The position numbers were made by a program, and so were the translations under genes. Below the pieces are notes generated by a model that was not told the origin of the DNA, ran no database searches, and was given only the letters and a program-made list of their open reading frames with translations. A DNA stretch of 20,000 nt from the NCBI GenBank assembly GCA_026025075.1, contig JAPEUI010000007.1, positions 245,830 through 265,829 of the forward strand. The letters run 5' to 3'. Of this stretch, positions 3,001-20,000 are shown in pieces. The stretch's first letter is position 1. The number at the start of each line of letters is the position of its first letter. This stretch comes from Vezdaea acicularis (Eukaryota).

Positions 3001-3523
3001 GAAGTCAAATCGAACGCTACATACGCAGTAGGTCTACTTTGTCAATACTCAACATCGGACACCCTTCTTCAACAAGCTTATCCGATAATCCTTACCAAAC
3101 TTGAACCGTTGCTGCACACAGAAAGTGCTCGTTTGCTTGACAATTCGGTTGGATGCGTTTCCCGAATGATCACAAAACATCCCTCGCGGGTGCCACTCGA
3201 TAATGTATTGCCAATCCTAGTAGGCGCAATGCCGCTCAAGGCTGACTATGACGAAAACGAACCTTTGTGGGACATGATCATTCAATTATGTTAGTGAAGT
3301 TTCCTGAAAATGACCCTACTGAATATGGGTTACGATTGGGTTTGTGTTTTTCTTATAGTGTGGCTAACAATATTTAGATCAAAAGTCCAATCCATACATT
3401 GAGTCGCAAACCTCAGCACTGATCCCAGTGATTGAACAAGTTCTCAAGGGGCCCGAGGAACAACTTGAAACCGAAACAAGAGAGAAGGTCGCCCAATTAC
3501 ACACATATCTACGAAGCAAGTGA
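1..3523 (+). CDS. KAP123: Importin beta-4 / karyopherin (HEAT/ARM repeat), 5' end outside window; exons <1-2330, 2509-2908, 2956-3289, 3378-3523
   Basis: Frame is open from base 1 (AALRKDYYPNPESL..., LRQLAAVEAR, importin-beta N-terminal type), with HEAT-like repeats and an acidic loop (DEDEVIDVEDLDDDD). Introns 2331-2508 (GTGAGT..TACTAAT..TAG), 2909-2955 (GTGAGC..CTGAC..TAG) and 3290-3377 (GTTAGT..GCTAAC..TAG) join in frame (EDEVDR/AVVTDINRN; EYTK/TLLTNL; IQLY/QKSNP) to TGA at 3521-3523. Confidence 0.9.
2359..2444 (+). ncRNA. snR71: Intronic box C/D snoRNA, snR71/SNORD29(U29)-type guide for LSU rRNA 2'-O-methylation
   Basis: Box C ATGATGA at 2364-2370, D' CAGA at 2396-2399, C'-like TGAATGA at 2411-2417, box D CTGA at 2437-2440, short terminal TGA/TCA pairing. 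Guide CCCAGCTCAC (2385-2394) is complementary to conserved LSU rRNA GUGAGCUGGG; the +5 rule points to the A equivalent to yeast Am2946. The host intron (178 nt) is much longer than the other introns here (47-88 nt). Confidence 0.85.
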
Positions 3524-4636
3524 TAATCTCATAGAAAACCCATTACATTCCTTACTTTTGGCTTCGGTCAAGCCTTGGACTGTGGGCATGAACTTGGGCC
3601 GTCACTCTCTTCGCTTGCTGGATAATGAGAACATGATTCACGGTATAGAGATGTAATGGCTGCTCCGCTTCCAAACTAAACATCAGATAATTTAGCATAG
3701 AGCAAATAAAAGCTACCCCCCCATAAAATCGCGTTCAAGATTGATCAATTTTCCAAGTCTTAAGATGCAAACATTCTTCCGGCACGAAATCAGGCAGCAG
3801 CCGAGACAAAACATGGTGTCAAGAAGAATATTTACATTCACCCAGTGACAATTATATGTGTTTCTCTAAATCCTCAAGTAGACTCGCTAGGATTCAAATT
3901 AGCCAGCACAGGGCAAGATTTGTAGTTGATACCAGAACGTTTTGTCAGTTGAATAGATATTAAAACGTCTACAAGCCTAAGCCGGTCTTCAAACCAGTCA
4001 TTGAACACTCAAACACCGCTTACGCTTATGGTAATAGTCAAAAAGATTATTAGCTAGGGAAGAATAAGCAATCTTACGATAGGATCCAAGACATAGTCGT
4101 AGAGTCATTTTCAGGGCAACTTCATAACTAGTAGTAGACAGCAGCCGCACACGTTAGATCGTCCGCCGAAAATAGTGTTCGAGCAAATGCCCCTCGAGGC
4201 ATATATAGGAAGACCTTTGCGTGGCAGTTTCATCCTCCGTTTCATATCTGGCCTTGTGGACAGAGTGCTATGACATATCTGCTGGATGTGCACCAAGCAA
4301 ACAGATCCTCCTATTAGATCGAGCATTTTCTGTGCGAAGCCACTACTACCTCATAGGAAAAATACCAGATGGTGCGACGTCAGAATTGGCTCAAGCACCT
4401 AAATGGTTGCGGGAGATATGTGGCGATCTCGCGAAAAGGGTTGAACCGAAACTGACGCTCGGGCATGGCCTATGATGAGCAGGACTCTGAAGTGAGCGCT
4501 TTTGGGATACTGTCATCGCACCGTGCTATTTGAGAAGAAAGATCCCCACAATGCGCAAGGGCACCAAACTTACAAGATTTTCCGGGGAATGGTTACGCGG
4601 CTCGTGTTGAATCGTCCCAGAATGTTACGGCTAGCT

Positions 4637-5464
4637 ATGATCGTTTTCAAGAGCTTGCTGATTTACGCTCTATGCTCTATATACTTTTCGGCATCAGCCT
4701 TACAGCCGCCAATACCCTATCATCAAGCCCGCGCTTTGCCCTTATACCCGCGCCAGAATAGCAGCAGCCAGAATAGCAGCAGTCCATGGCCCTCAGGTGT
4801 ACGTAGGCTCATCTAAAAGCCTGTATAACTCCTCCACTAATTCTCTAATCCCAAGGCCCTGAACTGCAGCGGCTTTCTTCCTGCGTATGATTACCCGCCC
4901 AACACTCAGCGCACCAACTTCAGCTCTCTTACAGCTTTCTGCGAGGAATACCTCATGTGTCAGAACAGCACTGCCACGCCAAGTTTGCTTACGCCACATA
5001 GACCCTTTACTTCTGCCGGGCTCTCTTGCGCATCGTGCGTATGCTTATCTCTAGATGATTATGCTCATGAACCCCACCCTGACGATCATAATTTGGAAGT
5101 ATCGGCAGGGTCGACCAGCTGTCCGTACGGCCCATTTCCAGCGGGTAGCACTGCAGCGGATTTTCGGGTCAACGAGCCGATCTGGAACGTATCATGCTTT
5201 CCAGATGTCAATATGGATATTTTCACATTGATTACCAATGTGTCAACATTCGACCCCGGAGAAGCAGTGCTTTGCAATTTGTGTCCTGGGGGTTATGGTC
5301 CTGATGAGGACTGTGTTAGGCAGCCGAATCCACTACCGACACCTTGTTGTTGGCCAGGGCAGCCATGTGCCAATGCCACAGGGGATGCGCAGTTCCCCGG
5401 AAATGGGACGTGGGGCTGGGAGGCAAATCCGCTGGGGTTTCCTATATTGAAACCGCTGCCGTAA
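4637..5464 (+). CDS. Predicted secreted, Cys-rich glycoprotein of unknown function (~256 aa); exons 4637-4798, 4856-5464
   Basis: Signal-peptide-like MIVFKSLLIYALCSIYFSASA. Intron 4799-4855 (GTACGT..CTAAT..AAG) joins ORFs 4502-4816 and 4955-5464 in frame. 14 Cys after the signal peptide and 9 N-x-S/T sequons. An alternative in-frame ATG lies at 4622. Confidence 0.72.
4753..4782 (+). repeat. Perfect 15-bp tandem duplication CCAGAATAGCAGCAG x2 (QNSSS QNSSS)
   Basis: Read directly; in frame within the secreted-protein gene, duplicating an N-glycosylation sequon. Confidence 0.9.
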
Positions 5465-5680
5465 TGAAAGATACCCAATTCATGACATGAATGAAAATAG
5501 TTGTCAACAAGGAGGCGTACCAAAGAGGGTTATGAGAACCTAGTCCTGGCGTCAGGGTTGGTTCATCTTGATGGTGGAATGGCGTATACTGGAGTTGATT
5601 GGAGTGCAGGAAAGATTTCCCGAGCGTTTTTTGAGACTATCAAGCTGTTGAGGCATTTGCATATTCCTTCTTCCGCCACG

Positions 5681-6607
5681 TTATACGTCTTCTTCCAGTG
5701 GCTTGATACCTCTGTGTATGGCCGCAACCCCCCCCGTTAAATCCTCCCATCCTCTGCCTCTGGAAAGTAGGAAGCCTGTCTTCGCAATTCTTTCGGCAAA
5801 TTCTGCCTGAGAGGGAAATCGATCGATGCTCTCAACTAGATACTGGTAGCTAGCACGGTCGCCAGCCACGAGCTGTCCGATCAGAGGAATGGCTCCGAAG
5901 CTCCACCTCTTATACAATGCGTTAAAAGCTGGATTGCCAACGTGTGAAAACTCGAGACAAGCAAATGTACCGCCCGGTTTCAATACTCGAAAAGCTGTTC
6001 TCAAGGATTTATCCAAATCGGCGAAGTTACGAATCCCAAAAGCGACCGTATACAGGTCAATGCTCGAGTCTTTCACCCCTTCTAGAGTCTCAGCATTGGC
6101 TTGTAAGAAGTTGAGCTCCTCAGTGCCGTACTCTAACGCTGTAGCGCGTTTCTGCCCTTCCGAAAGCATATCTGCATTGATATCTGCGACAGTAACCTTT
6201 GTTTTCAATGATAGGTTGACCTTCCGAGTGTGATTGAGAAGTCGAAAGGCAATATCTCCCGTGCCCCCCGCAACATCAAGGATATTATAAGATGATGATG
6301 ATGAAGAAGCGAGCGGCAGGATGGAACCAACAAAGTGGTCTTTCCACAATCGGTGAATGCCAAGGGACATAAGGTCATTCATCGTATCGTATGTGGATGC
6401 GACTGAGGAGAAGACAGCACCGACTTTAGCTTCTTTCTCGGAGAATGGGATCGTGGTAAAGCCAAATTGCGTTGTCCTTTGATTAGAATTGATTGCTTGG
6501 TCCTGAGGTCGGTTTCCTGAGCCTGAGAGATATCTACATGATGGCGCATTATATAAACATAGCCGTGTTCGAGCTGGCGAAGCTCTCCAAAGTGCTCTGG
6601 ATGTCAT
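5681..6607 (-). CDS. COQ5: Mitochondrial 2-methoxy-6-polyprenyl-1,4-benzoquinol C-methyltransferase (UbiE/COQ5 family), 308 aa, single exon
   Basis: Motifs VFSSVASTYDTMNDLMSLGIHRLWK, LDVAGGTGDIAF (SAM motif I), YTVAFGIRN, RVLKPGG and YQYLVESI; Arg/Ser-rich mitochondrial presequence. Confidence 0.96.
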   Translation of the reverse strand: MTSRALWRASPARTRLCLYNAPSCRYLSGSGNRPQDQAINSNQRTTQFGFTTIPFSEKEAKVGAVFSSVASTYDTMNDLMSLGIHRLWKDHFVGSILPLASSSSSSYNILDVAGGTGDIAFRLLNHTRKVNLSLKTKVTVADINADMLSEGQKRATALEYGTEELNFLQANAETLEGVKDSSIDLYTVAFGIRNFADLDKSLRTAFRVLKPGGTFACLEFSHVGNPAFNALYKRWSFGAIPLIGQLVAGDRASYQYLVESIDRFPSQAEFAERIAKTGFLLSRGRGWEDLTGGVAAIHRGIKPLEEDV

Positions 6608-6829
6608 CGTTATTTGATGGTTGACTTTTGAGTGCTGTTGTGATCACGGATAGGCCCCCCGGGGCCCGGTAGCTGGCAGGTGCCGAAGATACGGCGACGC
6701 ACGAAGCTCACAAATGCAATATTTTGAGCCGATTCTATCCGGGGCCTCCGATATCACGACCTCAAATATATGCTAAGACGCTGAGGATAGTGAAAGGCAT
6801 TGAGGGCGTCATGCACCTTCGATAGCATC
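6608..6829. promoter_or_regulatory. Compact bidirectional promoter region between COQ5 and E1-alpha
   Basis: Only 222 bp separate the two divergent ATGs; a GC-rich near-palindrome GGCCCCCCGGGGCC lies at 6653-6666. Confidence 0.55.
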
Positions 6830-8291
6830 ATGGCCCTTTGCAAGGAGCTTCATTATCTTCCGAAACGTATTCTACGCAGCCTTCAAACCACTCGACGACA
6901 TTCGAGATGCTTCAAGCGGTGGAGCTCGGTCTCTCAGAGACCGGGTTCAGACCGGTATACCTCCGCAAGACTTCCTTGAACCAAGCTGTGGCTAATAAAG
7001 CTAATTGATAGCGTTCACTTCCCAGGCGCTGTCGATAGCAAATTCACATCCAAGCTCGTGTTCCAGCGACCATCTGTGCATCCCGCTATAGAGACTTATC
7101 GGACGATGGACAGCAATGGCGCTATAGTCGACTTTGATAGAGAACCGAATGATATTAGTAAAGAAGAGGTAATCAAGCTTTATAAGGACATGCTCACAAT
7201 CAGTATCATGGATCTGATCATGTTTGATGCGCAACGACAAGGTCGTCTAAGCTTCTTTATGGTGTCCGCAGGTGAGGAGGGCATAGCTGTAGGCTCGGCA
7301 TCAGCCCTTGCTCCTGAGGACGTAATCTTCCTACAGTATCGTGAAGCTGGCGTCTTCCAACAACGTGGCTTCAAGCTTGAGGACTTTATGAGCCAACTTT
7401 TCGCGAACAGGAAAGACGCTGGTGTTGGAAGAAATATGCCAGTACATTACGGAAGCAGCAAGCTGAACATCGTAAACGACCCCTAAGCGCAAATTTAGGT
7501 TCTACTGCTGATTATTATTTTAGCATACAATATCTTCGCCATTAGCAACTCAGATCCCGCATGCTGCTGGTGCAGCTTATGCTCTGAAAATGCAAGCCCT
7601 CCAGGACCGGAGGAAACCCCCACGAGTTGTGGCTTGCTATTTTGGCGAAGGTGCTGCGAGCGAAGGAGATTTCCACGCCGCTTTGAACATTGCTGCTACT
7701 CGCTCTTGTCCTATCATCTTCATCTGTCGCAATAATGGCTTTGCGATATCCACGCCGACGCTGGACCAGTACCGCGGGGATGGCATTGCGAGTAGAGGTG
7801 TGGGTTACGGCATCGACACGATTCGAGTTGATGGTAACGACATCTGGGCTGTTCGTGAGGTTACAAAGCAAGCTCGTCGCATGGCTCTTGAAGACGGAGG
7901 TCGACCTATCTTAATCGAGGCGATGAGCTATCGGGTCAGTCACCATAGCACAAGCGATGATAGCTTTGCATACCGGGCGAAAGTCGAAGTTGAAGATTGG
8001 AAGCGTCGAGATAATCCTATAACGCGACTTCGCAAGTGGATGGAACTTAAAAGCATCTGGAGTGAAGAGGAAGAGCTCGATGCTAGGTCCTCTATCAGAA
8101 GGGACATCATGAAGGCCTTCTCAGCGGCGGAGAAAGAAAAGCGGCCTGCGCTGCGCAATATGTTCATGGATATTTACGCAGCGCCGACTGAAGAGAGTGA
8201 CGCACAAGTCAAGGAGCTCAGAAGAATATTACATGACTATCCGGACGAATACGATACACATGAGTTTGAAGGAGGGAAGACCGGTCTATGA
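6830..8291 (+). CDS. BCKDHA: 2-oxoisovalerate (branched-chain 2-oxoacid) dehydrogenase E1 alpha subunit, ~450 aa; exons 6830-6954, 7012-7471, 7524-8291
   Basis: Motifs AQRQGRLSFFM, QYREAG, GRNMPVHYGS, SSPLATQIPHA, TPP motif GEGAASEGDF...CRNN and loop YRVSHHSTSDDS. Introns 6955-7011 and 7472-7523 give in-frame joins (PGSDR/VHFPGA; KLNI/HTISSP). Basic mitochondrial presequence. Confidence 0.95.
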
Positions 8292-8589
8292 CAGCTTTAC
8301 TGTGATTCTATAGCCAAGGCGAACTCTGTGTGGTGGGCTATAAATCTAACTAAACACCTTCAACTATGATCCAGGCTTTCGACCAACCACGGCCTCATTA
8401 AAGACCAGCTTATGTGGGCGCTTTAAACACCAGATGCATTTTCTGCGCTCAAGTGTTAAAGATCCTTCTCTATCGAGTCAGCAGTAACGAACACCACCTG
8501 GTCTGCCAGCATTTTGCACTTCGAAACAACAAGTCTCCTTCCGATCCACAGAACTGAGTGGGGGTTGTTGAGATCGGTATCTAGTACCT

Positions 8590-9162
8590 TTAAGTCGGAA
8601 GTGGAGCGAAAATAGGAGTCGTTTTTTGACCGCTACTATTACTCTTGAGGGTGGTGTATATTGGAGAGGGACGGGGCAAATCCTCCTCTTCGTTACTGCT
8701 CAGTGCCGGTCCGTCGACGGCCGAAGGGCTACGAGCATCAAGCTTATCCTCCGCTGGCCGTTCGACGAAGTCTGCGTCTCGGCCGCTGATTTGTGATGCG
8801 TCTGTTCCATTTTCCGGAAATGCTGACAGATCATAATATAGATACCAATCATCTTCACCGTCGCCGCTCAGTGGCGGCCCGTTGACCCCTGAAGGACTGC
8901 GAACGCGTACGCGATCGTTTCCTCCTCCCTCCAGATATGAAAGTTCTTCAGGAGGTGAGGCTAATTCTGAGAGTTCGCTACCAGGGGAGATTAACTCTGA
9001 TATGCCGGGAGTGGAGCTAGGGCTAAGTGAAGTTAAGAATCCTTGGGCTGGAGTCGCGATTGCTGTAGGTACGCTGGTTGTCAAATATTGAACGGGGGTT
9101 GCAGATGCGAAGTGAGGGACGAATGCGAGAAGCGCGATGCATATTTGAGTAGATGGATACAT
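8590..9162 (-). CDS. Predicted small secreted acidic Ser/Pro-rich protein with internal repeat (190 aa)
   Basis: Signal-peptide-like MYPSTQICIALLAFVPHFASA; repeats RSPSGVNGPPLSGDGEDD / RSPSAVDGPALSSNEEED; TATA-like element upstream. The 3' end could be extended by unrecognised splicing. Confidence 0.62.
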   Translation of the reverse strand: MYPSTQICIALLAFVPHFASATPVQYLTTSVPTAIATPAQGFLTSLSPSSTPGISELISPGSELSELASPPEELSYLEGGGNDRVRVRSPSGVNGPPLSGDGEDDWYLYYDLSAFPENGTDASQISGRDADFVERPAEDKLDARSPSAVDGPALSSNEEEDLPRPSPIYTTLKSNSSGQKTTPIFAPLPT

Positions 9163-9256
9163 TTTGTATAGGAGGCACGGTTGAGGCGTAATTGAAAAGT
9201 TTTGTATTGGGAATGGCAGACGAGAATGAGCTTGTATTCAGTGCGGGGTGGCACTC

Positions 9257-9262
9257 TATATA
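9257..9262 (-). promoter_or_regulatory. TATA-like box for the 190-aa secreted-protein gene
   Basis: TATATA about 95 nt upstream of the ATG at 9162. Confidence 0.35.
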
Positions 9263-9989
9263 TGTGCCTTTGCTCAACCGAAAATAGGAAGTCCTTCTCG
9301 TCGCAAAAACACATGATCTCCCGAAAACATGAGAAGCTGTGACAAGCTTGTTGATATGTGAGACACGAGCTGTCCTCCTGGCAAATCCCTAAACCGTAAA
9401 GCTTCGGCTTTTCCTGACATTCTTGGAACCGGTCGAGAGTGCTGGACGCCTTGAAGGAATAGCGGCCCGAGCCAACTCCCCCGAGCCGGTGTCAGAAGCG
9501 TTGGGAGAATACAAAATCCAGTTTCAGTTTTCTTGGAGACGGCAGTTCCAAAGGCGTTTCATCCTGTTGCGCGATTATTGCCTCAACTCGGAAGGGTGGG
9601 GTTCGGTTAGGGGAACGCATTCATCCATCGCGATAGGACTTTTACCCGGACTTGGTCGCCGAGCCTAAATGCAGGTACGAGACTTTTGTCCAATTAAAGC
9701 GTTTGCGAAATAGCGGGACGGCTGCGGGTCGGAACCACGTGCTAGTTTGACATGCGACAATGCAAGTAGGAAATAGTCACGATGCAACTTAAAGTATCTT
9801 TAGACGTCAAACTACAGGGTCCCGGGACGCCGTCTGGCGGCGGAGGGATCCGAGGTAGCTTGCACGGCAACATTTCAAGCCCATCATTGAACCCGGGACG
9901 CTGATCAAGTCCACTTCTTGCCAGTTGTTTCCGTGATTTTGTCATGGATTCGTTTGATATTTGCCGAATATCTGTCCGGCCGCACCTCC

Positions 9990-11579
9990 TTACTCTTCAC
10001 CCAAGACCCCAAGCCACATCTCCATCCCTTCCCACACCAGCCCATCTCTTACCCCACAACACGCCTCAGAGACGTACGTCTGATTACAAGCACAAGCGAT
10101 CTCTCCCATCGCACTCTTCACCAGCTCCCTCTTTCCCAAATGATTGAACGTCCCACACTTCCAGGGAACATAAAGCCCCGCCCTAACCATTCGTGTGAAG
10201 CACGAACAATCACCTCTCCCTGACGAGTGATCAGAATTACAGTCCGTGGCCCCCTCCAAGTCAAGATAATTATCCACCGAGCGCATCGAGTCTCCCTCGG
10301 CGGGCCTCGATCGTTTTCTAGCTCCTAGCCCGAGCCTCCTTCGCCACGGCCGGACTTGGCCCAGTTCCGAAGGGTCGAAATCTGGGCTCGTGCTGCAGTC
10401 GCACCATAGCTGACACCACTGTACCAACCTTATGTTGGCATACAGGTCAGGGTCAGCCCAAGTACTGGAGCACACCGGGAACTCGCGCTGGGGGCTCGTG
10501 GGGCACCAGCATCCGAGATGGTCCTTGCGGAGTGTTGAGTTTCTGCATAGCTCATCGAGGTCCGCATACCGTGATGGGTTGTAGCTGCTCGAGTCGGTAA
10601 TGTAACCGCCGATGTTTTCGTTAGGTAGGGAGCCGCGGTTGCAGGTTGGGGGGATTAGTAGCGAGCGATGTTGGATCGGGACGCGGGTAGTGGAATCGGT
10701 GAGCACACGGCGGGTTAACCCTGACGAGTTGTTGGAAGTCTCTTTCAAAGAAGGAGGGGAAGGCGTGGATTCTGCGGAATGTTTCATGACGCTGAAAGAT
10801 GATAGCTGCTCGTTCGTACTAAACCTGGGATGCATCTGAAGGTTTCTACCAGCTTGCCTCCTGTGATCCATCCTATTGGATCTAACATTCGCTTCTTCTC
10901 GAAGCTCGAGGCTCAGTTCTCCCATCTGCTTGTCAAGCGAGCAAGAATGTTTGGCTCCCTTATCAAGGTTGACTAGGATAGCCTGAGTTCCAGCTCGGGT
11001 ATAAGAAGCAGATTTCCCAATTCTGTTGCTAATACTCGACCCGAGTTCAGGCTGTGTCTTGTCCGATTCCACGTCTGATATGTCTCCAACACCATAAAAC
11101 TCTAGTAATGGAGTATCGTCAGGTCTAGCAGCCCGAACAGTCTCATCACCGCTTCCATCTTCCCTGGAAGCGTGTTGGTCTTGAAATCCACAGCCACAAT
11201 GCTCTAGGCACCAATTCCGGAGAAATAGTATATGCCAAATCACAGGGTCAGCCAAGTCTTCCTCACATGAATGCGTGCCCAGTGCTCGAGACGGACAAAT
11301 ACAGCCCATCGATGTCCTTGTAGGCGATGTTGATCGGTAGGCACAGAGTAGGGTCAAATCGTTCACATAATTCTCAGAGTCCGTTGCGTAAGGCCATTCT
11401 TGCACCGGACGGTCAGGCGAATAATCGTTACTGCAGACAAGATGGTTTTGTATCGGAGGCGCTACAAATGGCTGGCGAGGAGTAAGCGCTCCACATCTTG
11501 TAACAATGCCAAAGAAGATCGTTAATGTGATAAGTAAAGGTAAGTCGAAGAGTAGAGCTAAACAGTAGAGAGAAGACAT
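9990..11579 (-). CDS. Predicted secreted Cys-rich multidomain protein (529 aa) with a duplicated 8-Cys module and dibasic sites
   Basis: Long uninterrupted ORF with hydrophobic N-terminus. Modules aa 49-130 and 313-395 share C..Y.(N/A)DL..LC..GC.CP..C....ADP..WC...C.C. C-terminal CACNQTYVSEACC..GLVWE follows a GKR site. Confidence 0.75.
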   Translation of the reverse strand: MSSLYCLALLFDLPLLITLTIFFGIVTRCGALTPRQPFVAPPIQNHLVCSNDYSPDRPVQEWPYATDSENYVNDLTLLCAYRSTSPTRTSMGCICPSRALGTHSCEEDLADPVIWHILFLRNWCLEHCGCGFQDQHASREDGSGDETVRAARPDDTPLLEFYGVGDISDVESDKTQPELGSSISNRIGKSASYTRAGTQAILVNLDKGAKHSCSLDKQMGELSLELREEANVRSNRMDHRRQAGRNLQMHPRFSTNEQLSSFSVMKHSAESTPSPPSLKETSNNSSGLTRRVLTDSTTRVPIQHRSLLIPPTCNRGSLPNENIGGYITDSSSYNPSRYADLDELCRNSTLRKDHLGCWCPTSPQREFPVCSSTWADPDLYANIRLVQWCQLWCDCSTSPDFDPSELGQVRPWRRRLGLGARKRSRPAEGDSMRSVDNYLDLEGATDCNSDHSSGRGDCSCFTRMVRAGLYVPWKCGTFNHLGKRELVKSAMGEIACACNQTYVSEACCGVRDGLVWEGMEMWLGVLGEE

Positions 11580-12495
11580 GCTCTCGAAGTGAAAGGCATT
11601 CTCTCAAGTATGAAGAGACACTAGCTATCCAAAGGTATATAACGCCATAAAGGGCACGTTCGCAACTTCATGCGAGGGAGGGGACCATACGAAGTTATGG
11701 TACCATATTGGAAAAAAAGTTTATAAGACTGGACTTAGGATGTCGTCACAGCACCACAGTTGAGTTCCATTCAGGAAGCCCCGGGTTCAGCTCAGGATCC
11801 TGTTGCATCCTACGGACTGTTTAATCCGAAAGCCTTGCGGCACAGTAAAGGCAATCTGGCCAGCCTGGGTGAGATTGCAACCCTGTGTAGTACACGTTGA
11901 CGCTTAGACTATGCGTTAATCCGCGCACAGCCATGGTTTTCAGAACTTTGAGAGTGTTAGGTGACAGAATTAAACCACCTCGATGGTCTGTAGTCATCGA
12001 ACAAATGGAGGTGTACATGGTCTACAAGCATCAGCTCTCTGATCAAACAAGAACAGGATGCGCAGGCGTTGCAGCACTATGCCAAGCAGCTATTGGTGGT
12101 CCTGGTACAGCGTAAGTACCGGGCCCGTTCGTGTTCCTAATCTAAGTGTTTCAAGGGAAATGACTCATAGAATGGCCTGACTATATGCTGCGGGGTTGTG
12201 CACTCTAGGTTGATTCGCCTAAATGGTTGTTTGGAGGTGCGCGGCTCATTTATGGACTGCAGCAAAAGAGGGCAACTCTAAATAGATGCTTGTTATTCAA
12301 TTAACTTACACCTTCTCGAAAAATGACTACAGTAAGTGGAAAGCTTTCGAATTGCTAGAAGTCGCAGTCAATTATAATGAACCGATCCTTTCAATTTAAG
12401 ACTGAGCATTAGCCGGTGCAAGGTCAGTGAGCCAGTAGGAAGACGTTCCTGGCGGCTTCTAAGGACGTGACGCTTCGGATCTCCCTGGTATCACA

Positions 12496-14300
12496 TCATA
12501 TGGGTCGCTCAAGCCCAAGCGTCTTCCAAGTTGCTTCCATATCTTCGACAAGCTGAAGGAAATTATCGTCCATGATCAGGGCGCAGAGCTCTTTGTTGAG
12601 GAGAGAGAGCCTCTCGTTTTCAGGTAATGCAGCATAGGCTCCTAATTGATCTCGTTCTAATTTCATGGCCATTTCTGTGTTTTGGCTCTGTAACCAGCGT
12701 TGCAGATCTTTCTGGTAGAGACTTGAATTAGCTGCAAAATCTGGCTTATGCGTTGCGGCTAAGGCTGAAATCCTCCGCGGCTCGATTCTTATAGAGTCGG
12801 GAAGCTGTATAGGCTCCTCCATAGCGGACGCTTGGCGTTTCTTGGACTTTGGAGCCGGTTGCTCGAGGGACTCTGGAGATGAGTTTCCTAGAAGGCCTAA
12901 ATTGCCAGTAGGCTTCTGGCTATTCTCTGAAGTGAATCTATATATGGACCTAGGAGAAGATGTGATGCCACCAAAGCCTGATTTAGATGAAGCCGAGGTA
13001 ATTACGGAGAGACTTCCCACATTCTGGCCCGACGTCTGCGAACCTGCATATTCTCTTTGCGATTCTGTTTGATTTTGCGAAAAGTATGATGACGCCTGAC
13101 CATTTTGGGGGGATTTTCTGCTTGGGGAAGACAACAATTGCGACTGAAGATTTGACGATGATAGATCGCGACGTTGATAGGCTTCAGGCTGCTGGGATAG
13201 AGACGTTTTGTTCGTTATCGGATCCTTAGACTTCTTCGCAAACTTCGTTGGAGGTCTCATGGTTGGCGAAGAGTATCTAAATGGCGAGGTCATCCGTGCT
13301 GATGAGGCTGGAAGGCGGGACAAGAATTGAGAGACACTTAGTTCGTCGTTGCTGTAAGAACCAGCCGATTTAACATGGCTCAGCGCCTGGAGTTCATTAT
13401 CACGCCCTGGATTCTGAAGGATAGTTCCCAAAACTGATTTGTCAGGTTGCGTAGGTGAGGACGAGGAGGGGAGAGAAGCAGGGTAAGCGCATTGCCCGGC
13501 TGAAAAGCTGGGAAGCTTGAAAGCTTTAGAGTAAACGTTGCCGGTAATCTGAGCATCGCTGACTTTGACTTGATCTTCAATAATTTTAAGGAGGGTTCGC
13601 GGTATGTTATCCCGTTGGGTCGAAGAGACTACGTCAAGATGCCCTCCAGATGAGAATAGTGGTCGAGATGAATCAGACTGAGAGCTTCCGAGATTGCGTT
13701 GCAGATTGTTACGTTCCTGGATTGGAAAGTCATGGTCTCTAAGTATAGCAATAGAAGAAAAGTAGTCGGCCGGATTTTGGAAGCGAACTTGAATCTGCCT
13801 TGTCTTCAAATGTTGTTAGAAAGGTATAAGACATGCCAGATGCATGAATTGTACCTGGCCATTGTACTGCTTGTATTGGATAGCCAGCTTCATGGTCTGT
13901 GCATTCACTAGAGCACCCAGAGGAAGCATTTTTGGATCACAAGAAGAAAGGCGTATTCCACCAAGTGAACTCCTTGCCACAGCAACAGCGCCATAAAGGT
14001 CGAAATTTTCCTTCGGGTGTCAGTACTTCATTGGAATGAAGAAGTTGTATAAATTAAAGCCATGTGTATGGACTAACTAACCAGAGTGTTAGTTCCGTAT
14101 AACACCTTCAAAATTGGCTTTGAGAGCATTCTGCCTCCAACCCCTGGAACCTGGAGATCCTCGAACACCAACCAGAGGGCATTGTCCCGCTGTTCAATAT
14201 GAGCAAATTGGACTGGATCGGTGCCACTTTTAGCGAAAGAAAATCGTTGTAAAGGAAAATAGACGTGGTTAGCCTTGATTGCAGGAGGCAAAGCATCCAT
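12496..14300 (-). CDS. REC114: Probable meiotic recombination protein Rec114/Rec7 (~560 aa); exons 14300-14082, 14010-13855, 13803-12496
   Basis: Introns 14081-14011 (GTTAGT..TACTGAC..AAG) and 13854-13804 (GTACAA..TCTAAC..AAG) join in frame. The product has an N-terminal PH-like domain (FPLQRFSF, LWLVF, LKVLYG..LENFDL, LAIQY, RQIQVRFQNPADY), a long S/P/Q-rich disordered linker and a C-terminal helix (ELCALIMDDNFLQLVEDMEATW), which is the Rec114 architecture. The start codon is uncertain; an upstream exon is possible. Confidence 0.72.
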
Positions 14301-14681
14301 TTCTACAGTCACTGGGGGTGGTTGTTGGCCACTTCCACTCGAGTATCTCCTTACTGATAATAATATATGTTCGATTCATAAGAAGATCAAGGATCAAAAC
14401 GCCCTGCTTAAATAATGGTAGGTTCGTATTTAGTCATAATAGATGGGATAGGCTCGGAAGAGAATAGGACACCATACGGAGCAGTGTGCATGTTGAAAGA
14501 GACATCCTGCGCAAATGCCACTCCGTACCATAACGATAACCGTAGGCTCTAGAGAACGATCAGAAGATCTTGACCGCCTGTAAGCTAGATCTTTCCTAAG
14601 AAGCGGAACCCACTGAAGTCCACAACTGCTAGTTATTGTGACATGAAAGGAAGGCTCAAGCCCACTAGCGCGCTTTCCTCG

Positions 14682-14826
14682 TGTAGAATTTTGCATGTTC
14701 TGCCTTGAGGGTCGCCGTAATACGACAGGGATTGACGCGACGTTCGGATTTGTACGTACCGCTTAGTCAGGCTCGCCTATAGAGGCGAGCCCCCGTAACC
14801 GCGAGCTCAGCGGCTTCGCAACTACA
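14682..14826 (+). repeat. Putative 5' LTR (right end well supported, left end tentative)
   Basis: Ends in ..GCAACTACA (14826) directly before the PBS; TGTAG at 14682 is the inverse of CTACA. Alternative TG starts at 14751 (TGTACG) and 14579 (TGTAAG). Contains hairpin GGCTCGCCT-ATAG-AGGCGAGCC (14770-14791). Confidence 0.5.
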
Positions 14827-14827
14827 T

Positions 14828-14834
14828 TGGTAGC
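14828..14834 (+). other. Primer-binding site, tRNA-iMet type
   Basis: TGGTAGC one base after the LTR-terminal CA; complementary to the GCUACCA 3' end of fungal initiator tRNA-Met, the same core as Ty1/Ty3 PBSs. Confidence 0.7.
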
Positions 14835-14944
14835 AACACCCCTATTTGAGTTTTAGGACCACAAACCCCTATAAACACATCAAATACGATCAGATCCTCT
14901 AGACATAGTAGCGAACGCCCCGTTGTAGCCATCAACGTACTCAA

Positions 14945-15922
14945 ATGGCATCGTCGGACGGTAATCTTGGCATCCCTAACGTGTTTGGCTTTGGTGGAAG
15001 AGCTTTCAGTACCCCGTCAACACCAGAGCCACCCATTGACACTCCGTCAACGCCTAATATGACTTCAAACAACGGAAATACACTAGATACGGCCACTGTC
15101 ATTGAGCTTCTCAATGCATCAGGCAACAAGCCCAAGTTGCAGGCCCCTGAAAAGTTTGACGGAGCCAAAAGGGATACTGACGGAGCCAATAACTGGCTCT
15201 TTAAGATGGAACGGTATCTTCTGCTAGCACAGATAGACTCTAAGCTAAAAGTCATCTATGCAGCACAATATCTTACGGACAATGCCCAGTTCTGGTACCG
15301 GACCATAGCTGGCAATCAGTTTCAAAGTCCGTCAGATAACTGGATTGAGTTTAAGGAGACATTCAAGGCCCGTTTTGAAGACGTCAATAGCGACAACAAG
15401 ATGCTTGAGCAGTTCTTTACGATAACGCAAGCTGGTACACGCTCACGGAGCTTACGGGAGTATATTGAAACCTTCACTAGGTTATGGTCAGTGGTTCATA
15501 CCAACATATCTGAACCAGTTGCTGTATCACGTTTTGTACAAGGACTGCAGCCTCGTACAAGAATAGATGTGCAACGTGCCCAACCAGTGACACTGTCAGC
15601 AGCTATACAGCTGGCGGACGCAGCTGAAGGCATTAACATTCAGACGTTTCAGCCCCGTCAAGCCAATAACCGATATCAGAAGCAACCAAGAAGATCCGAC
15701 AGTCCTGGTTTTGGTCCGCCAACACCATATTATGGTCCGGAACCTATGGATCTATCAATGATGACAGGTCCAATACGCCCTTCCATGAAGACGGACCAAC
15801 GACGAAAGGGGTTGTGCTTTATGTGCAACAAGCCAGGACATATTGCTCGGAACTGTCCGACAGGGAGAGTTGGTGAACGGACTAACTCTAGGCCACAAGG
15901 GCCAAAAAACTACAGGACTTAG
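14945..15922 (+). CDS. gag: Retrotransposon Gag (capsid plus CCHC nucleocapsid), 325 aa
   Basis: PEKFDG...[33 protein letters not shown] and zinc knuckle [14 protein letters not shown]. Confidence 0.95.
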
Positions 15923-15959
15923 ATAAGCTGGCGCTCTTATCTAAGTCAAGTATGGCGCC
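15904..15959 (+). other. Programmed -1 ribosomal frameshift signal
   Basis: A_AAA_AAC (15904-15910) in gag phase, 5-nt spacer, then perfect 12-bp stem GACTTAGATAAG (15916-15927)/CTTATCTAAGTC (15936-15947). pol is in the -1 frame and is open only from 15892. Confidence 0.9.
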
Positions 15960-18900
15960 TTCTCTACAGGCCATATCTACAGAGAGTACCCGCAACTTAG
16001 AGAAGGAAGTTGACGGAAGGATAGAAATCTCCGGAGCTTGCGGCAGGCCTCTGGCGGTGTCCGATTCCGCCAGACAACGGGAGATTGAAGAACAGAATAG
16101 AAAGACCCATGGGGAGACGATAGAGGAGCTTGATCAACTCCTAAGCATAAGAGACAGAGCAGACGCTGATCTGTTAGTATTTAACGGCAATGTGAACGGA
16201 CATACCGTAAGAATACTAGCAGATACAGGAGCGTCAAGACGGTACATCAGACGGAGCACAAGTGATGCTGCCGGACTGAAGATTATGCCTTTAAAGGGGC
16301 ATAAAGGGGTTAGGCTGCCGGACAGCAGCCAATTGCAGATTTACGGGACCGTAAGCTGCACAGTTACTATCCAAACCTTTACAGATAAAGCTACATTTAT
16401 TGTCATTGATCTGGCGCAATATGATATCATTCTAGGCATGGACTTCTTCCGCCAATATCAACCAACTATTGACTATAAAGCTTGCGGACTCATCATTCAG
16501 CAGAACAACTATGAGCATGCTCTCCATGACTCATTACCACATCCGTTAACATTAGAGTATAATCATATACCAGCTAGCGGATGGCGGAACGTCAGACGGA
16601 CGTTACAACATAAGGGACAAGGAGTTCTATATATGCTAATAGACGGAGACACGTCCGACAAGCTGACGGACAAGTCCGGCAAGGACATTGAGTCATTGAA
16701 GGAAGAGTTGAGACCGTTAATGAAAGTATTCCGTACTGAACTACCTACAGGGGTAGGGCCAAAGCGTTATGTGGATCATCACATTGATACGGGTGATGCA
16801 CGTCCTATCAATAGGAGTGCCTATACTTTAACTCCACAGCAGTTAGAGGAACAGGCCCGACAGATCCGTTACCTAGAAGAACGGGACCTTATCCGTCCAT
16901 CTCATTCACCTTGGGGTTCTCCAGTACTCTTTGTCAAGAAGAAAGATGATTCATGGCGGATGTGTGTTGATTACCGGGCATTAAACAATGTGACCGTCAA
17001 GAACGGCTATCCGTTACCAAAGATACAAGATTGTTTGGATCAAATAGGGTCCGCTAAAGTGTTTTCAAAGGTTGATCTACTGTCAGGCTACTGGCAAATC
17101 CGTGTGGCGGATGCTGATATACCAAAGACAGCCTTCAATACCCGTATTGGCAAGTTTGAGTTCCGTGTACTACCGTTTGGATTAACCAATGCTCCGGCAA
17201 CCTTTCAGACGCTTATGAATGACATTTTACGGTCATGTCTAGACAAATTTGTGGTTGTCTATCTAGATGACATCCTCATCTATAGTCAAGATGAAAAGGG
17301 GCATATGGAACATCTCAAGATTGTATTGCAGATCTTGTTAGAAAACAACCTGTTTGCACGGCCAGACAAGTGCTCCTTCTTTCAAACGGAAGTGGACTTT
17401 TGCGGACACATTGTCGGAGCTGGCGTAGTCCGTATGGATCCGCATAAGCTAGCAGCCATCAAAGATTGGCCAACTCCTAGGACAGTTCATCATGTCCGTC
17501 AATTTGTAGGCTTATGCTCATACTATCGGAGGTTTATTAAGGAGTTTGCACGCATTGCAGCACCAATGCATGAGCTGCTTAAGCTGCCGGAAGCAACTCG
17601 CGGACATAAACATCAGCCTATAGTATGGAATGCCAAATGCCAGATGAGTTTCCGTCAACTAAAGGAATGCCTCACCGTCGCGCCAGTATTGCAACAACCG
17701 GATGTTAAAAGAGCTTTTATCATTGAAACGGATGCATCAGACTATGCATGCGGAGCTACATTGTTGCAGACAAACTTGGCTGACGGACGGGAACATCCGG
17801 TTGCTTTTGAAAGCCGTAAGTTCAATCCGGCAGAAAGCCGTTATCCAACACATGAACAGGAGCTATTGGCAATCAAGCAAGCTTTACGTGCTTGGCGTTG
17901 TTACATTGAGAACGGACATACAACTATTGTACGGACAGATCATGAAGGGTTACAGTACATGAAGACAACCCGTAAGCCTTCCAAACGTCTAGGCCGGTGG
18001 ATAGAAGAGTTTGAGGAGTACAATCTAAAGATAATCCACAAATCCGGAAAGCTAATGACGGTGCCGGATGCACTATCAAGACGTCCTGACTACTTGCATA
18101 ACATTGAACTTAATGTTTTGGAATGGACGGACTATATGACGGACTATCTAGAGTCCGGCAAGCTATCAGGTGACAAGAACATTGATCATATGCTCCGTTC
18201 TAGAGCACATGAGTTTACAATAGCTATGGAAACTCTTTGTCACAGAGATTCACCAGAGTCGGACTGGATTGACTACTTACCCCTATGGGCAAGAGCTGAT
18301 CTATTGGACCGTCTGCATAAGGACTATGGTCACAGCAATGAGTTGACATTGCTAAACCTAGTTAGTGCACGGGGATGGTGGCCAACAATGCGCAAAGATA
18401 TAAGGCATTATGTACGGCACTGTACGGACTGTCAAATAGCAGGACGGTCCCGTCAGGGGTTGCACACTGATGTTCAGCATCCGTCACATCAATGGAGTGG
18501 ACGGATTGAACCGTTTGACCGTTGGGGATTAGATCTCATTGGCAGACTCCCTAAAACACCGTCCGGCAACCGCTGGATCATTACAGCAGTTGACTATGCA
18601 ACCCGTTGGCCAGTAGCAAAAGCAGTGCCGGATGCTACAGCAGAAGCCCTAGCTGAGTTCATTCATGACAAACTCTATATGCATTACGGATCTCCAAAAG
18701 AGATTGTGACGGACCAAGGACGGAACCTATGGGCTCCGGCAATGAGCCAATTCTTGTCTAAACTAAATGTCAAGCATAGGGGAACAACTCCATATCATCC
18801 ACGGACAAACGGAGCAGTTGAAAGTCTTAACGGAACGCTAGGTAACATGCTGACAAAATACCTGCTCAACCGGCCACGTTCTCATTGGGACCGGTATTTG

Positions 18901-19509
18901 GATCAGGCATTGTTTGCAGCACGTATCCGTACGCATAGTACTACCCGTTTCTCACCATTCTATATGCTTTACGGACGCCAACCTAGGTTACCAATGGACG
19001 AGAATGGTATAACTCCACTGACGGACAATGTACGGGAGGACAAGCTTCCGTTATTTGAAACACTCCGTATGGAAGCTTTACGGAACACAGAAGAACGTGC
19101 TTTAAAGAACAAGCAAGCATGGGACGCAGCTATTACCCCTATTCAGTACAAACCGGATGACTATGTACTGGTACGGGCTGAGAATCAGCTGAAGTGGCAA
19201 GGTAAATGGTTTGGACCCTATCGAGTCCGTCGGGCTATGCCATTGAATACATATGAGCTAGAGACTCCTCAGAAGAAGAAGTTAGAGCTCCTTGTAGGTG
19301 GTGACCGGCTAAAACAGGCTCGAGTTGAGGGAAGAGTAACTCGCGGATGGCGGATGCCCAAGGGACCAGGCCGTAAACGGATTTACGGTAGTGAAAACAA
19401 TCCGAACCACGCGGTGGCAGCTCCGTTAGACCAGTTTGAAGCTCTACCGGAAGAAGAAGGACTGCAGGAAGACAGTCCAATAGAACCGCAGTTGTGGCAA
19501 CTGCTATAA
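15910..19509 (+). CDS. pol: Retrotransposon Pol (aspartic protease, reverse transcriptase, RNase H, integrase), expressed as Gag-Pol by frameshift
   Basis: ILADTGAS (DTG 16222-16230); [41 protein letters not shown] (17260-17271); ETDASDY, EQELLAI, VRTDH, DALSR; H-x4-H...C-x2-C, GLDLIG, TDQG, TNGAVE, GPY motif. No stops or frameshifts. Confidence 0.97.
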
Positions 19510-19570
19510 TACATTGACGGGCAGGCCGTCCCACCTGACGGACCATACTTTCTACTGACGGACGCTGGAA

Positions 19571-19748
19571 CATCCGTCAAACACTTGAGTCATCCGACAA
19601 GCACTTATTTCATTTGTAAATACCATAAAACGCAAAAAACATTCATTATTGACTATCTACTTGTTATGTCCAGGCTAAAAACCGTCCGCAAGGCTCTGAC
19701 GGACGTAAAACTGCCTATCATCCATCCGTCAATGCACCCATCCGTCAA
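19571..19748 (+). repeat. Short direct repeats CATCCG(T/A)CAA between pol and the antisense ORF
   Basis: Copies at 19571-19580, 19591-19600 (20-bp period, degenerate third copy at 19611), 19723-19732 and 19739-19748. Confidence 0.75.
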
Positions 19749-20000
19749 CTACTCCAACATAGCCACCAGATCATCCATCCTCTGCTCCATCATGTCCGCA
19801 TTTTGCCGCATCTCGGCAGCCAAGCTACGGACCTCCCTGGCAAGCACCAGCACAGGGGGCTCATTCAGGGGCTGGAACCCCCGCTGGCGAGCCGGAGCCC
19901 CAGGCGCTACAGCGGCAGCCTGAGGCCCGGTAGCCCTGACCACGGGCCTGGAAGCCGGAGGCCGGACAGCCCGGGCCACAGCCCTAGCCACGGCCACGGC
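19749..20000 (-). CDS. 3' end of an antisense ORF downstream of pol (Ala/Arg/Pro-rich, C-terminal amphipathic or coiled-coil helix); 5' end outside window
   Basis: Frame is open from 20000 to TAG at 19749-19751, with a sharp rise in GC. Protein ends ...AVARAVARAVR...VLVLAREVRSLAAEMRQNADMMEQRMDDLVAMLE*. Confidence 0.55.
   Translation of the reverse strand, partial: AVAVARAVARAVRPPASRPVVRATGPQAAAVAPGAPARQRGFQPLNEPPVLVLAREVRSLAAEMRQNADMMEQRMDDLVAMLE

Follow-up and report, generated by a model that had tools for sequence, protein, structure and literature searches.

CpG contexts in an intact Ty3/Gypsy retrotransposon of an ascomycete: a possible TpCpG-type purge, a surplus of ACGGA and a deficit of AATT

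The window analysed here is a stretch of 20,000 nucleotides from contig JAPEUI010000007.1 of Vezdaea acicularis, in which compact host genes are followed by a Ty3/Gypsy retrotransposon. The element is intact and mobile, and its CpG dinucleotides occupy contexts unlike those of the CpGs in the host genes: TCG and its complement CGA are avoided, and ACGG and CCGT are in surplus. This pattern is context-specific, strand-symmetric and independent of codon choice, and it is missing from host genes and from relatives of the element. On the strength of the sequence and its statistical analysis, we tentatively read it as the footprint of a C-to-T process directed at TpCpG and resembling repeat-induced point mutation (RIP), subsequently filtered by purifying selection, an account whose chance we rate at slightly under even. 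The finding thus has three parts, namely what looks like TpCpG-type purging in an intact ascomycete retrotransposon, a surplus of ACGGA that is left unexplained, and a hole at AATT.

CpG contexts of the element and its host

Scored over 14945-20000, the element holds 232 CpGs, 177 (76%) of them in CCG or CGG, with 61 ACGG, 45 CCGT, 29 CCGG and 2 TCGA. The host part of the window (1-14000) has 714 CpGs, of which 279 (39%) stand in CCG or CGG, with 29 ACGG, 29 CCGT, 40 CCGG and 73 TCGA. As the density of CpG is similar in the two (45.9 per kb in the element and 51.0 in the host), the CpGs have been redistributed and not lost. ACGG and CCGT together reach 21.0 per kb in the element against 4.1 in the host, and TCG and CGA together 6.1 against 32.5. 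When base composition is taken into account, the observed/expected (O/E) ratios for element and host are 2.93 and 0.56 for ACGG/CCGT, 1.74 and 0.83 for CCGG, and 0.10 and 1.34 for TCGA. Among the trinucleotides, TCG (0.21 against 1.07) and GCG (0.45 against 0.87) are low in the element, and ACG (1.08) and CCG (1.48) show no depletion there. The plus strand of the element carries 14 TCG and 17 CGA. The strongest single signal is the avoidance of TCG/CGA, and the specific surplus is one of ACGG/CCGT, not of CCG/CGG as a class.

The pattern was initially noticed in a sequence-only reading of the window, which had counted by hand the CpGs of two 600-base samples. Its counts are exact: CCG/CGG holds 21 of the 23 CpGs at 18001-18600 in the element and 7 of the 25 at 601-1200 in the host. 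Its description of the CpGs of the element as confined to CCG/CGG captures the majority and is too strong a word, because 24% of them lie elsewhere. The same reading held that ACGG and CCGT recur throughout gag, pol and the 3' region with the open reading frames (ORFs) intact, and this is borne out, with ACGG occurring in all three codon phases as well as in the non-coding 3' part. In gag, 25 of 41 CpGs are in CCG/CGG, and in pol 127 of 160, including 42 ACGG and 35 CCGT. Past pol, 19510-19748 has 14 CpGs, 11 in CCG/CGG and one in TCG/CGA, and the signature persists in 19749-20000, where 14 of 16 CpGs are in CCG/CGG.

To separate nucleotide context from coding content, we subjected each ORF to 500 permutations of synonymous codons that preserved both the protein and its codon usage. 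In pol, ACGG/CCGT occurs 77 times against 34.9 ± 4.5 in the permutations (z 9.3), a count reached by none of the 500, and TCG/CGA 17 times against 81.2 ± 7.2 (z -8.9). The corresponding figures are 43 against 67.6 for GCG/CGC, and 127 against 96.5 for CpGs in CCG/CGG. In gag, ACGG/CCGT is found 16 times against 9.1 and TCG/CGA 11 times against 22.6. The same permutations of four host ORFs gave |z| <= 2.1 on all eight measures. When the element proteins were instead recoded with host codon usage, the departures in pol were larger still (77 against 24.2 for ACGG/CCGT and 17 against 126.8 for TCG/CGA). Synonymous permutation was the test by which the sequence-only reading had proposed that its claim of a bias beyond amino-acid and codon composition should fall, and the bias is left standing. 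An artefact of such composition or of small counts might be suspected from the two short samples with which the observation began, and its probability is now negligible: the counts hold over 5 kb of element against 14 kb of host, both codon-level controls refute it, the pattern is present in non-coding DNA too, and pieces of the element 97-99% alike were recovered in contigs of four runs from four studies.

A finer dissection is possible at sites where C and T are synonymous before a codon starting with G. Here C is used in TCGA at 0/31 sites of the element and 21/36 of the host (Fisher p 6.7e-8), in TCGT at 0/11 and 5/15, and in ACGA at 1/16 and 18/37. Conversely, C is used in ACGG at 17/21 sites against 3/11 in the host (Fisher p 0.006), in GCGG at 7/10 against 5/13, and in CCGG at 6/10 against 4/17. 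Codon-level causes, such as a poorly used CGA codon, are ruled out by the complete avoidance of TCGA across codon junctions. A scan of 32 neighbour contexts at synonymous sites likewise singles out T_G, where the element has TCG instead of TTG at 2/60 sites and the host at 53/112 (p 1.6e-10), and its complement C_A, where CGA is chosen over CAA at 4/43 sites against 26/59 (p 1.4e-4). C_C is lowered as well (11/42 against 33/53, p 8e-4), G_G is unchanged (9/26 against 22/59), 27 of the 32 contexts have p > 0.01, and two weaker non-CpG contexts also differ. Since TCG and CGA are both strongly lowered at synonymous sites, the cause must act on, or be read from, double-stranded DNA. Along the coding region the loss is even, with TCG/CGA kept at 2/26 synonymous sites in gag and at 1/19, 2/34 and 1/24 in the successive thirds of pol.

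The TCGs and CpG-bearing codons that remain are distributed in a particular manner. Of the 13 TCGs still present in the ORFs, 11 could not undergo a C-to-T change without altering the protein, compared with 59/112 in the host. Arginine is encoded by 6 CGA, 35 CGG and 36 CGT codons in the element and by 26, 12 and 14 of these in the host, and 73 of the 87 CGN arginine codons are preceded by A or C. TCG makes up 3/53 of the TCN serine codons against 34/166 in the host. On the other hand, in CCG/CGG contexts lacking a 5' T or a 3' A, C is used at 36/50 sites against a baseline of 241/514 before codons that do not start with G, so that these contexts stand above baseline and are not merely spared.

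The preferences can be summarised in a Poisson half-site model, in which each CpG receives one weight for its 5' base on each strand. The weights are C 1.34, A 0.87, G 0.59 and T 0.27 in the element, and C 0.89, A 0.81, G 0.93 and T 1.14 in the host. They do not agree with a rule that CCG/CGG is what is spared, as the sequence-only reading had worded it: TCG/CGA is hit hardest, followed by GCG/CGC.

A separate departure from expectation concerns A-tracts. AATT is nearly missing from 14945-19509, where it occurs 4 times against about 25.4-25.7 expected by codon permutation (z -5.9), and its O/E ratio, 0.84 in the host, drops to 0.18 over the element. Further words of the A-tract kind are scarce too (AAAT/ATTT 20 against 41.8, AAAA/TTTT 24 against 42.7, and GAATT 0 against 7.5). 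TATA, ATAT and TTAA are normal in the element, and the host ORFs show no deficit of A-tracts or AATT.

A possible TpCpG-directed mutator and its rivals

According to the account that we favour, the coding and 3' parts of the element would have been repeatedly exposed to a double-strand-level C-to-T process whose targets are CpGs, strongly preferred where a T stands 5' (TpCpG, seen as CGA on the opposite strand) and less strongly where a G does. It could be a RIP-like hypermutation or one that combines methylation with deamination, of the kind seen in repeats of Pucciniomycotina. In a lineage that was still transposing, harmless targets would have been lost by TCG becoming TTG and CGA becoming CAA, and the remaining TCGs would mostly be those where the change alters the protein, guarded by selection. 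Indispensable CpGs, chiefly those of CGN arginine codons, would have moved to non-target flanks, with A or C before them and G or T after. Three points are inferences: a mutator as the cause of the pattern, its action in this host, and an adaptive role for the switching of flanks.

The closest precedent comes from the Pucciniomycotina, the one group in which such a process has been known until now. Horns et al. 2012 (PMC3318451) describe RIP-like C-to-T mutation strictly at TpCpG in repeats of Microbotryum, Puccinia, Melampsora and Rhodotorula, and transposable elements poor in TpCpG in Microbotryum. Horns et al. 2017 (PMC5381629) raise the possibility for Microbotryum that successful element variants shed their target sites, and Hood et al. 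2005 is cited there as a source for TpCpG hypermutation. The element studied here shares with this system the trinucleotide and its depletion on both strands (with the TCG O/E of 0.21 against 1.07), the affected repeats beside unaffected single-copy genes, the Gypsy-type elements and their poverty in TpCpG. It differs in that its host is an ascomycete, GCG/CGC is reduced too and ACGG/CCGT is gained, and in that the mutator is here deduced from a static sequence pattern. Furthermore, the purge is near complete (2/60) in an element that is nevertheless intact, whereas a 938-bp Gypsy fragment of Microbotryum kept 35 target sites according to Horns et al. 2017 (PMC5381629). A second comparison is offered by CpG-biased C-to-T changes in transposable elements of Tuber, Aspergillus and others, which Amselem et al. 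2015 (PMC4352252) ascribe to methylation followed by deamination. Those cases resemble ours in the CpG target and in the ascomycete hosts, where a Dnmt1-class enzyme is suspected (PMC4352252). Unlike that process, which as described there lowers CpG in all contexts, total CpG is kept here and the context alone is changed. Seven of the relatives that we fetched do resemble such all-context decay, none of their contexts rising above about 0.2.

Two further systems are less apt. Classical RIP, as in Neurospora and other Pezizomycotina, is RID-dependent and CpA-biased, and it is akin to the process envisaged here in being fungal, repeat-directed and strand-symmetric C-to-T mutation, with the present host falling in a RIP-bearing subphylum. 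However, the element has no CpA-to-TpA signature, its GC content of 48% (0.479) is host-like, and its ORFs are intact. By the usual RIP index thresholds, too, the values of 0.87 for TpA/ApT and 1.17 for (CpA+TpG)/(ApC+GpT) confirm the earlier judgement that this is not the classical pattern. Single-stranded DNA cytidine deaminases of the APOBEC3 type leave a strand-asymmetric footprint on retroviruses, graded along the genome. Depletion of a preferred motif from a retroelement is common to both cases, but here the plus strand is as depleted of TCG as of CGA and there is no gradient. A deaminase acting on single-stranded DNA during reverse transcription was rejected on account of this strand-symmetric loss and of the absence of a 5'-to-3' gradient. 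A-to-G editing of the ADAR type was set aside on strand symmetry and on its neighbour preferences.

The earlier suggestion that a genome defence had purged the element, or had been avoided by it, is upheld as the best available reading, with its precedent in PMC3318451, even though the rule in which it was couched has to be replaced. Several observations weigh against this reading. CpG as a whole is hardly reduced, the total O/E being 0.80 in the element and 0.87 in the host, figures on which we also reject methylation-driven global decay of CpG. TpCpG targeting has been published for basidiomycetes, and the host here is a pezizomycotine ascomycete. A process of loss alone cannot yield an O/E of 2.93 for ACGG, nor can it raise C use to 36/50 over a baseline of 241/514 unless the contexts concerned are colder than ordinary cytosines. 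Both the roughly 2.5-fold surplus of ACGG(A)/(T)CCGT over the flank weights and the avoidance of AATT and A-tracts fall outside the model. Among the 40 copy differences listed of a total of 411, nine touch a CpG. Three ACGA and one CCGG among these are private to the window, and two ACGT and a single TCGA, CCGA and ACGG are carried by other copies instead, with no trend and no direct C-to-T change at TCG. Lastly, the long terminal repeat (LTR) and the 5' untranslated region (UTR), together 14751-14944, hold 14 CpGs, with TCG/CGA accounting for 6 and CCG/CGG for 5, and are thus host-like; the LTR alone has 9 CpGs with 4 in TCG/CGA. The signature begins at gag, and the chance of at least 6 TCG/CGA arising in this segment at the rate of the element is 0.005. 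A homology-triggered mutator should reach this most repeated part of the element, and its exemption calls for special pleading, such as functional constraint.

Counts, permutations and word scans found no such pattern in the host genes and ORFs. None of 78 relatives drawn from metagenome contigs (30-64% identity) has it by O/E, the highest ACGG O/E among them being 1.67 against 3.18 here, and low TCG always accompanying low overall CpG. Likewise, in the 34 relatives whose open frame reaches 800 codons or more, a TCG/CGA use below 0.15 is never combined with a VCGG use above 0.5; the pol of the window scores 0.04/0.06 and 0.81. This absence from host genes and relatives indicates that the signature belongs to this element lineage or its setting and not to Gypsy elements in general, in keeping with the initial assignment of a DNA-level, strand-symmetric and context-dependent pattern to the element and not to host genes.

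That neither host genes nor relatives whose reverse transcriptases are about 50% identical or less carry the signature would also be expected if neutral sites had come to the equilibrium of the error spectrum of the element's own reverse transcriptase together with RNA polymerase II. We regard such an intrinsic replication bias as unlikely, though it accounts for a good deal. It can be strand-symmetric because the reverse transcriptase copies both strands, and it would favour the run-extending changes CGA to CGG and TCG to CCG and disfavour A-tracts. It fits the uniformity of the pattern along the ORFs, the random spacing and orientation of the ACGG sites, and the aberrant non-CpG words such as AATT (4 against 25.4). 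It also fits the similar O/E sums in element and host, with CGA+CGG at 0.21+1.48 against 1.07+0.80 and CGC+CGT at 0.45+1.08 against 0.87+0.72, as alike sums are expected from transitions in the flanks and not from loss of CpG. However, the outcome at synonymous T_G sites is T in 58 of 60 cases, which is the product of C-to-T change and not of T-to-C change in the flank. Homodinucleotides show no general excess (AA/TT 0.98, CC/GG 1.02), and the LTR and 5' UTR are reverse-transcribed too, yet lack the signature. To our knowledge, with no search aimed at the point, no reverse transcriptase has so sharp a tri- or tetranucleotide specificity.

Alternatively, the signature could be a legacy of another host, gained in a different lineage, for instance one that hypermutates TpCpG, and carried here by a horizontal transfer too recent for re-equilibration. 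We consider this distinctly unlikely, but the comparison of copies gives it some substance. We aligned contigs of four public runs from four studies on 13001-20000. In one of them, X6, the host flank differs from the window at 167 of 1700 positions (~10%), and the pieces of the element at 32 of 1434, 19 of 710 and 19 of 917 (~2%). Such a contrast makes recent transfer possible, in which case the signature may come from elsewhere; the flank is partly intergenic and fast-evolving, so that the contrast is suggestive only. The host flank recovered from run X2 shows 3 differences over 1750 bases (99.8% identity) and ceases to match at 14750, where other sequence takes over, indicating that this strain either lacks the insertion or has another locus there. 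The X2 copy of the element shows 30 differences in 2545 (1.2%) in spite of this nearly identical host. The codon choices of the element are unlike those of the host, and, its own copies aside, the closest pol reaches only 50-53% identity. On the opposite side, no donor lineage is indicated by a TCG-specific loss in any of the 78 fetched relatives, the element's own LTR and UTR look like host sequence, and the nearest pol relatives that carry a name are ascomycete elements at 40-47% identity. Moreover, a foreign origin shifts the cause elsewhere and provides no replacement for it. With regard to the element itself, the sequence comparisons show that it is intact, multi-copy, under purifying selection (29 of the 40 listed differences, of 411, are synonymous) and polymorphic for this insertion, and suggest that it spread or was transferred recently between related fungi. 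One contig of run X5 skips 59 bases in pol (17148-17208) and represents an internally deleted, frame-breaking copy in that sample. The metagenome scan that recovered the 78 relatives yielded no second copy of this element, and a search of viral contigs for more copies gave 5 pattern matches, none related.

The surplus of ACGGA

The half-site model fits 14 of the 16 CpG contexts (chi2 9.3), the outliers being ACGG (61 against 21.2) and CCGT (45 against 21.2). The deviance of 42.1 (12 degrees of freedom) with flank weights only falls to 12.4 (11 degrees of freedom) when a factor for ACGG/CCGT, estimated at x2.49, is added. A penalty on palindromic contexts, considered in place of a special status for ACGG, gives a poorer fit at 24.9 (11 degrees of freedom) and was rejected. 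Sparing of CCG/CGG, as earlier proposed, thus cannot by itself lift ACGG/CCGT to 2.5 times the prediction of the flank weights. The two flanks are coupled in the arginine codons as well, where CGG follows A in 23 cases and CGT follows C in 24, and the other pairings number 6 and 9 (p 4.9e-5). A scan of k-mers against the codon null defines the word as ACGGA/TCCGT, extending to (T)GACGGA(C), with TCCGT at 19 against 3.3, ACGGA at 32 against 11.9 and GACGGA at 15 against 3.4. After strand symmetrisation, ACGG/CCGT (93 against 44.8) and CGGA/TCCG (99 against 46.6) stand far above other words. ACGGAC is strongly biased to the plus strand (20 against 4 GTCCGT), which the ACGG core is not (61 against 45), and GGAC is above the codon null as well (48 against 32.6).

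Purging does not explain this gain. ACGG(A) could be a refractory context, rising above baseline if the defence causes most of the C-to-T change in the element. It could also reflect the replication bias of the element, or a selected DNA word. Under the last of these, ACGGA/TGACGGA would be a functional word of double-stranded DNA under positive selection, for example a candidate site for a DNA-binding protein of the host or the element, with weak copies across the coding region and strong copies clustered past pol. In addition to the deviance, the k-mers and the arginine coupling, it can appeal to seven copies of TGACGG/CCGTCA in 233 non-coding bases, starting at 19515, 19536, 19556 and 19697 on the plus strand and at 19574, 19726 and 19742 on the minus strand, and to 25 copies in the whole element against 2 in 14750 host bases. 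This cluster after pol keeps the idea alive, but we hold it to be improbable as an account of the whole pattern. It leaves the loss of TCG/CGA, GCG/CGC and AATT unexplained, no known factor could be matched to it, and the literature matches listed for these words are, judged by title, incidental. Furthermore, the roughly 100 sites occur in all codon phases and are unlike binding-site arrays: neither even spacing nor an orientation pattern was found among the 106 ACGG/CCGT sites, whose spacing (coefficient of variation 0.87, P 0.095) and orientation (45 runs against about 53) are random. Such scatter favours a process that responds to local context.

The retrotransposon and its host

The element is assigned to the Ty3/Gypsy (Metaviridae-type) group by its gag, which has a capsid and a CCHC knuckle, and by the domain order protease, reverse transcriptase, RNase H and integrase of its pol. 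At its 5' end, the plus-strand segment 14751-14826 is read as a 76-bp LTR of the form TG...CA, on the evidence of the break in the flank, abutting contig ends and depth. Many different loose ends of the run contigs abut 14747-14751 and 14823-14828, and the summed depth at 14803 in run X2 is 246, whereas the flank contig has 8.45 and the interior of the element about 42 (138 in X6). This high depth points to many solo copies or to other elements sharing the LTR. The LTR is unusually short at 76 bases and contains an 8-base inverted repeat around TATAGA. No second copy of it was found within the window, with 19400-20000 checked, and hence the 3' end of the element should lie beyond base 20000. 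One base past the LTR is TGGTAGC (14828-14834, plus strand), a candidate primer-binding site whose complement ends in CCA like the 3' ends of tRNAs, and which would resemble the initiator-tRNA primer site of Ty3. The window contains no tRNA gene.

The gag ORF (14945-15922, plus strand) encodes 325 amino acids and matches the Pfam families Ty3_capsid (4.6e-17), Retrotrans_gag (1.7e-16) and zf-CCHC (4e-5). The pol frame on the same strand (15892-19509) is open from 15892, and the gag stop lies at 15920-15922. Within the resulting 31-nt overlap, the heptamer A AAA AAC in the gag frame (15904-15910) is a probable -1 frameshift site, being presumably the classical slippery heptamer. The first ATG of pol opens an ORF of 1185 amino acids (15952-19509), with RVP_2 at residues 73-182, RVT_1 at 328-488 (4.5e-38), RT_RNaseH at 584-690 (6e-34), Integrase_H2C2 at 781-830 and rve at 854-950. 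Atlas returned generic Gypsy clusters for pol, without usable taxon signal.

Pol is followed by the non-coding stretch 19510-19748 that carries the seven TGACGG/CCGTCA copies in both orientations, and then by the GC-rich end of the window (19749-20000), where a minus-strand frame open to the window edge (83 amino acids), which matches no Pfam family, is a candidate part of the element. Frames are in fact open on both strands of these last 250 bases, which may belong to the element or to a sequence nested in it or next to it. Pfam returned nothing at E <= 1 for four small 3' ORFs. The 3' ends vary among copies, one X2 contig departing at 19662, and read cover past about 19787 is next to none in X2 and weak in X6, from which we draw no inference. 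The RNA of 19505-19790 is predicted to fold only modestly better than shuffled sequences (z -2.1), 3 of 200 of which fold as well.

The host genes before about 14750 are compact and include an importin-beta and a COQ5 methyltransferase. Two minus-strand ORFs of 529 (9990-11579) and 437 (12496-13809) amino acids match no Pfam family at E <= 0.001. Apart from its own record at 100%, the complete COQ5 protein has its best named matches only in Pezizomycotina, at 60-66% identity, from Chaetothyriales, Lecanoromycetes, Dothideomycetes, Leotiomycetes and Eurotiales, and its closest Atlas clusters occur most often in Ascomycota. By these protein matches the host is a filamentous ascomycete (Pezizomycotina) or a relative of one, and neither the matches nor the clusters place it in the Pucciniomycotina.

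These considerations allow for a bolder, and in our view doubtful, version of the TpCpG-directed process. A lineage of Pezizomycotina, where it has never been described, may possess a repeat-specific TpCpG mutator, and the element may have escaped it by recoding and become effectively invisible to the defence. Every dispensable TCG/CGA would then have been shed, and the indispensable CpGs would have moved into ACGGA/TCCGT and CCGG as words that are refractory or actively protected. If true, this would be a clear case of a transposon escaping a context-specific genome defence through synonymous recoding. It would also extend TpCpG-type hypermutation to ascomycetes, and with it the range and the target diversity of RIP-like systems. 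The size of the codon contrasts (0/31 against 21/36 and 2/60 against 53/112) makes this arms-race hypothesis directly testable given the host genome, its other repeats and its methylome, and the surplus of ACGGA and the hole at AATT point to forces on the sequence that have yet to be named.

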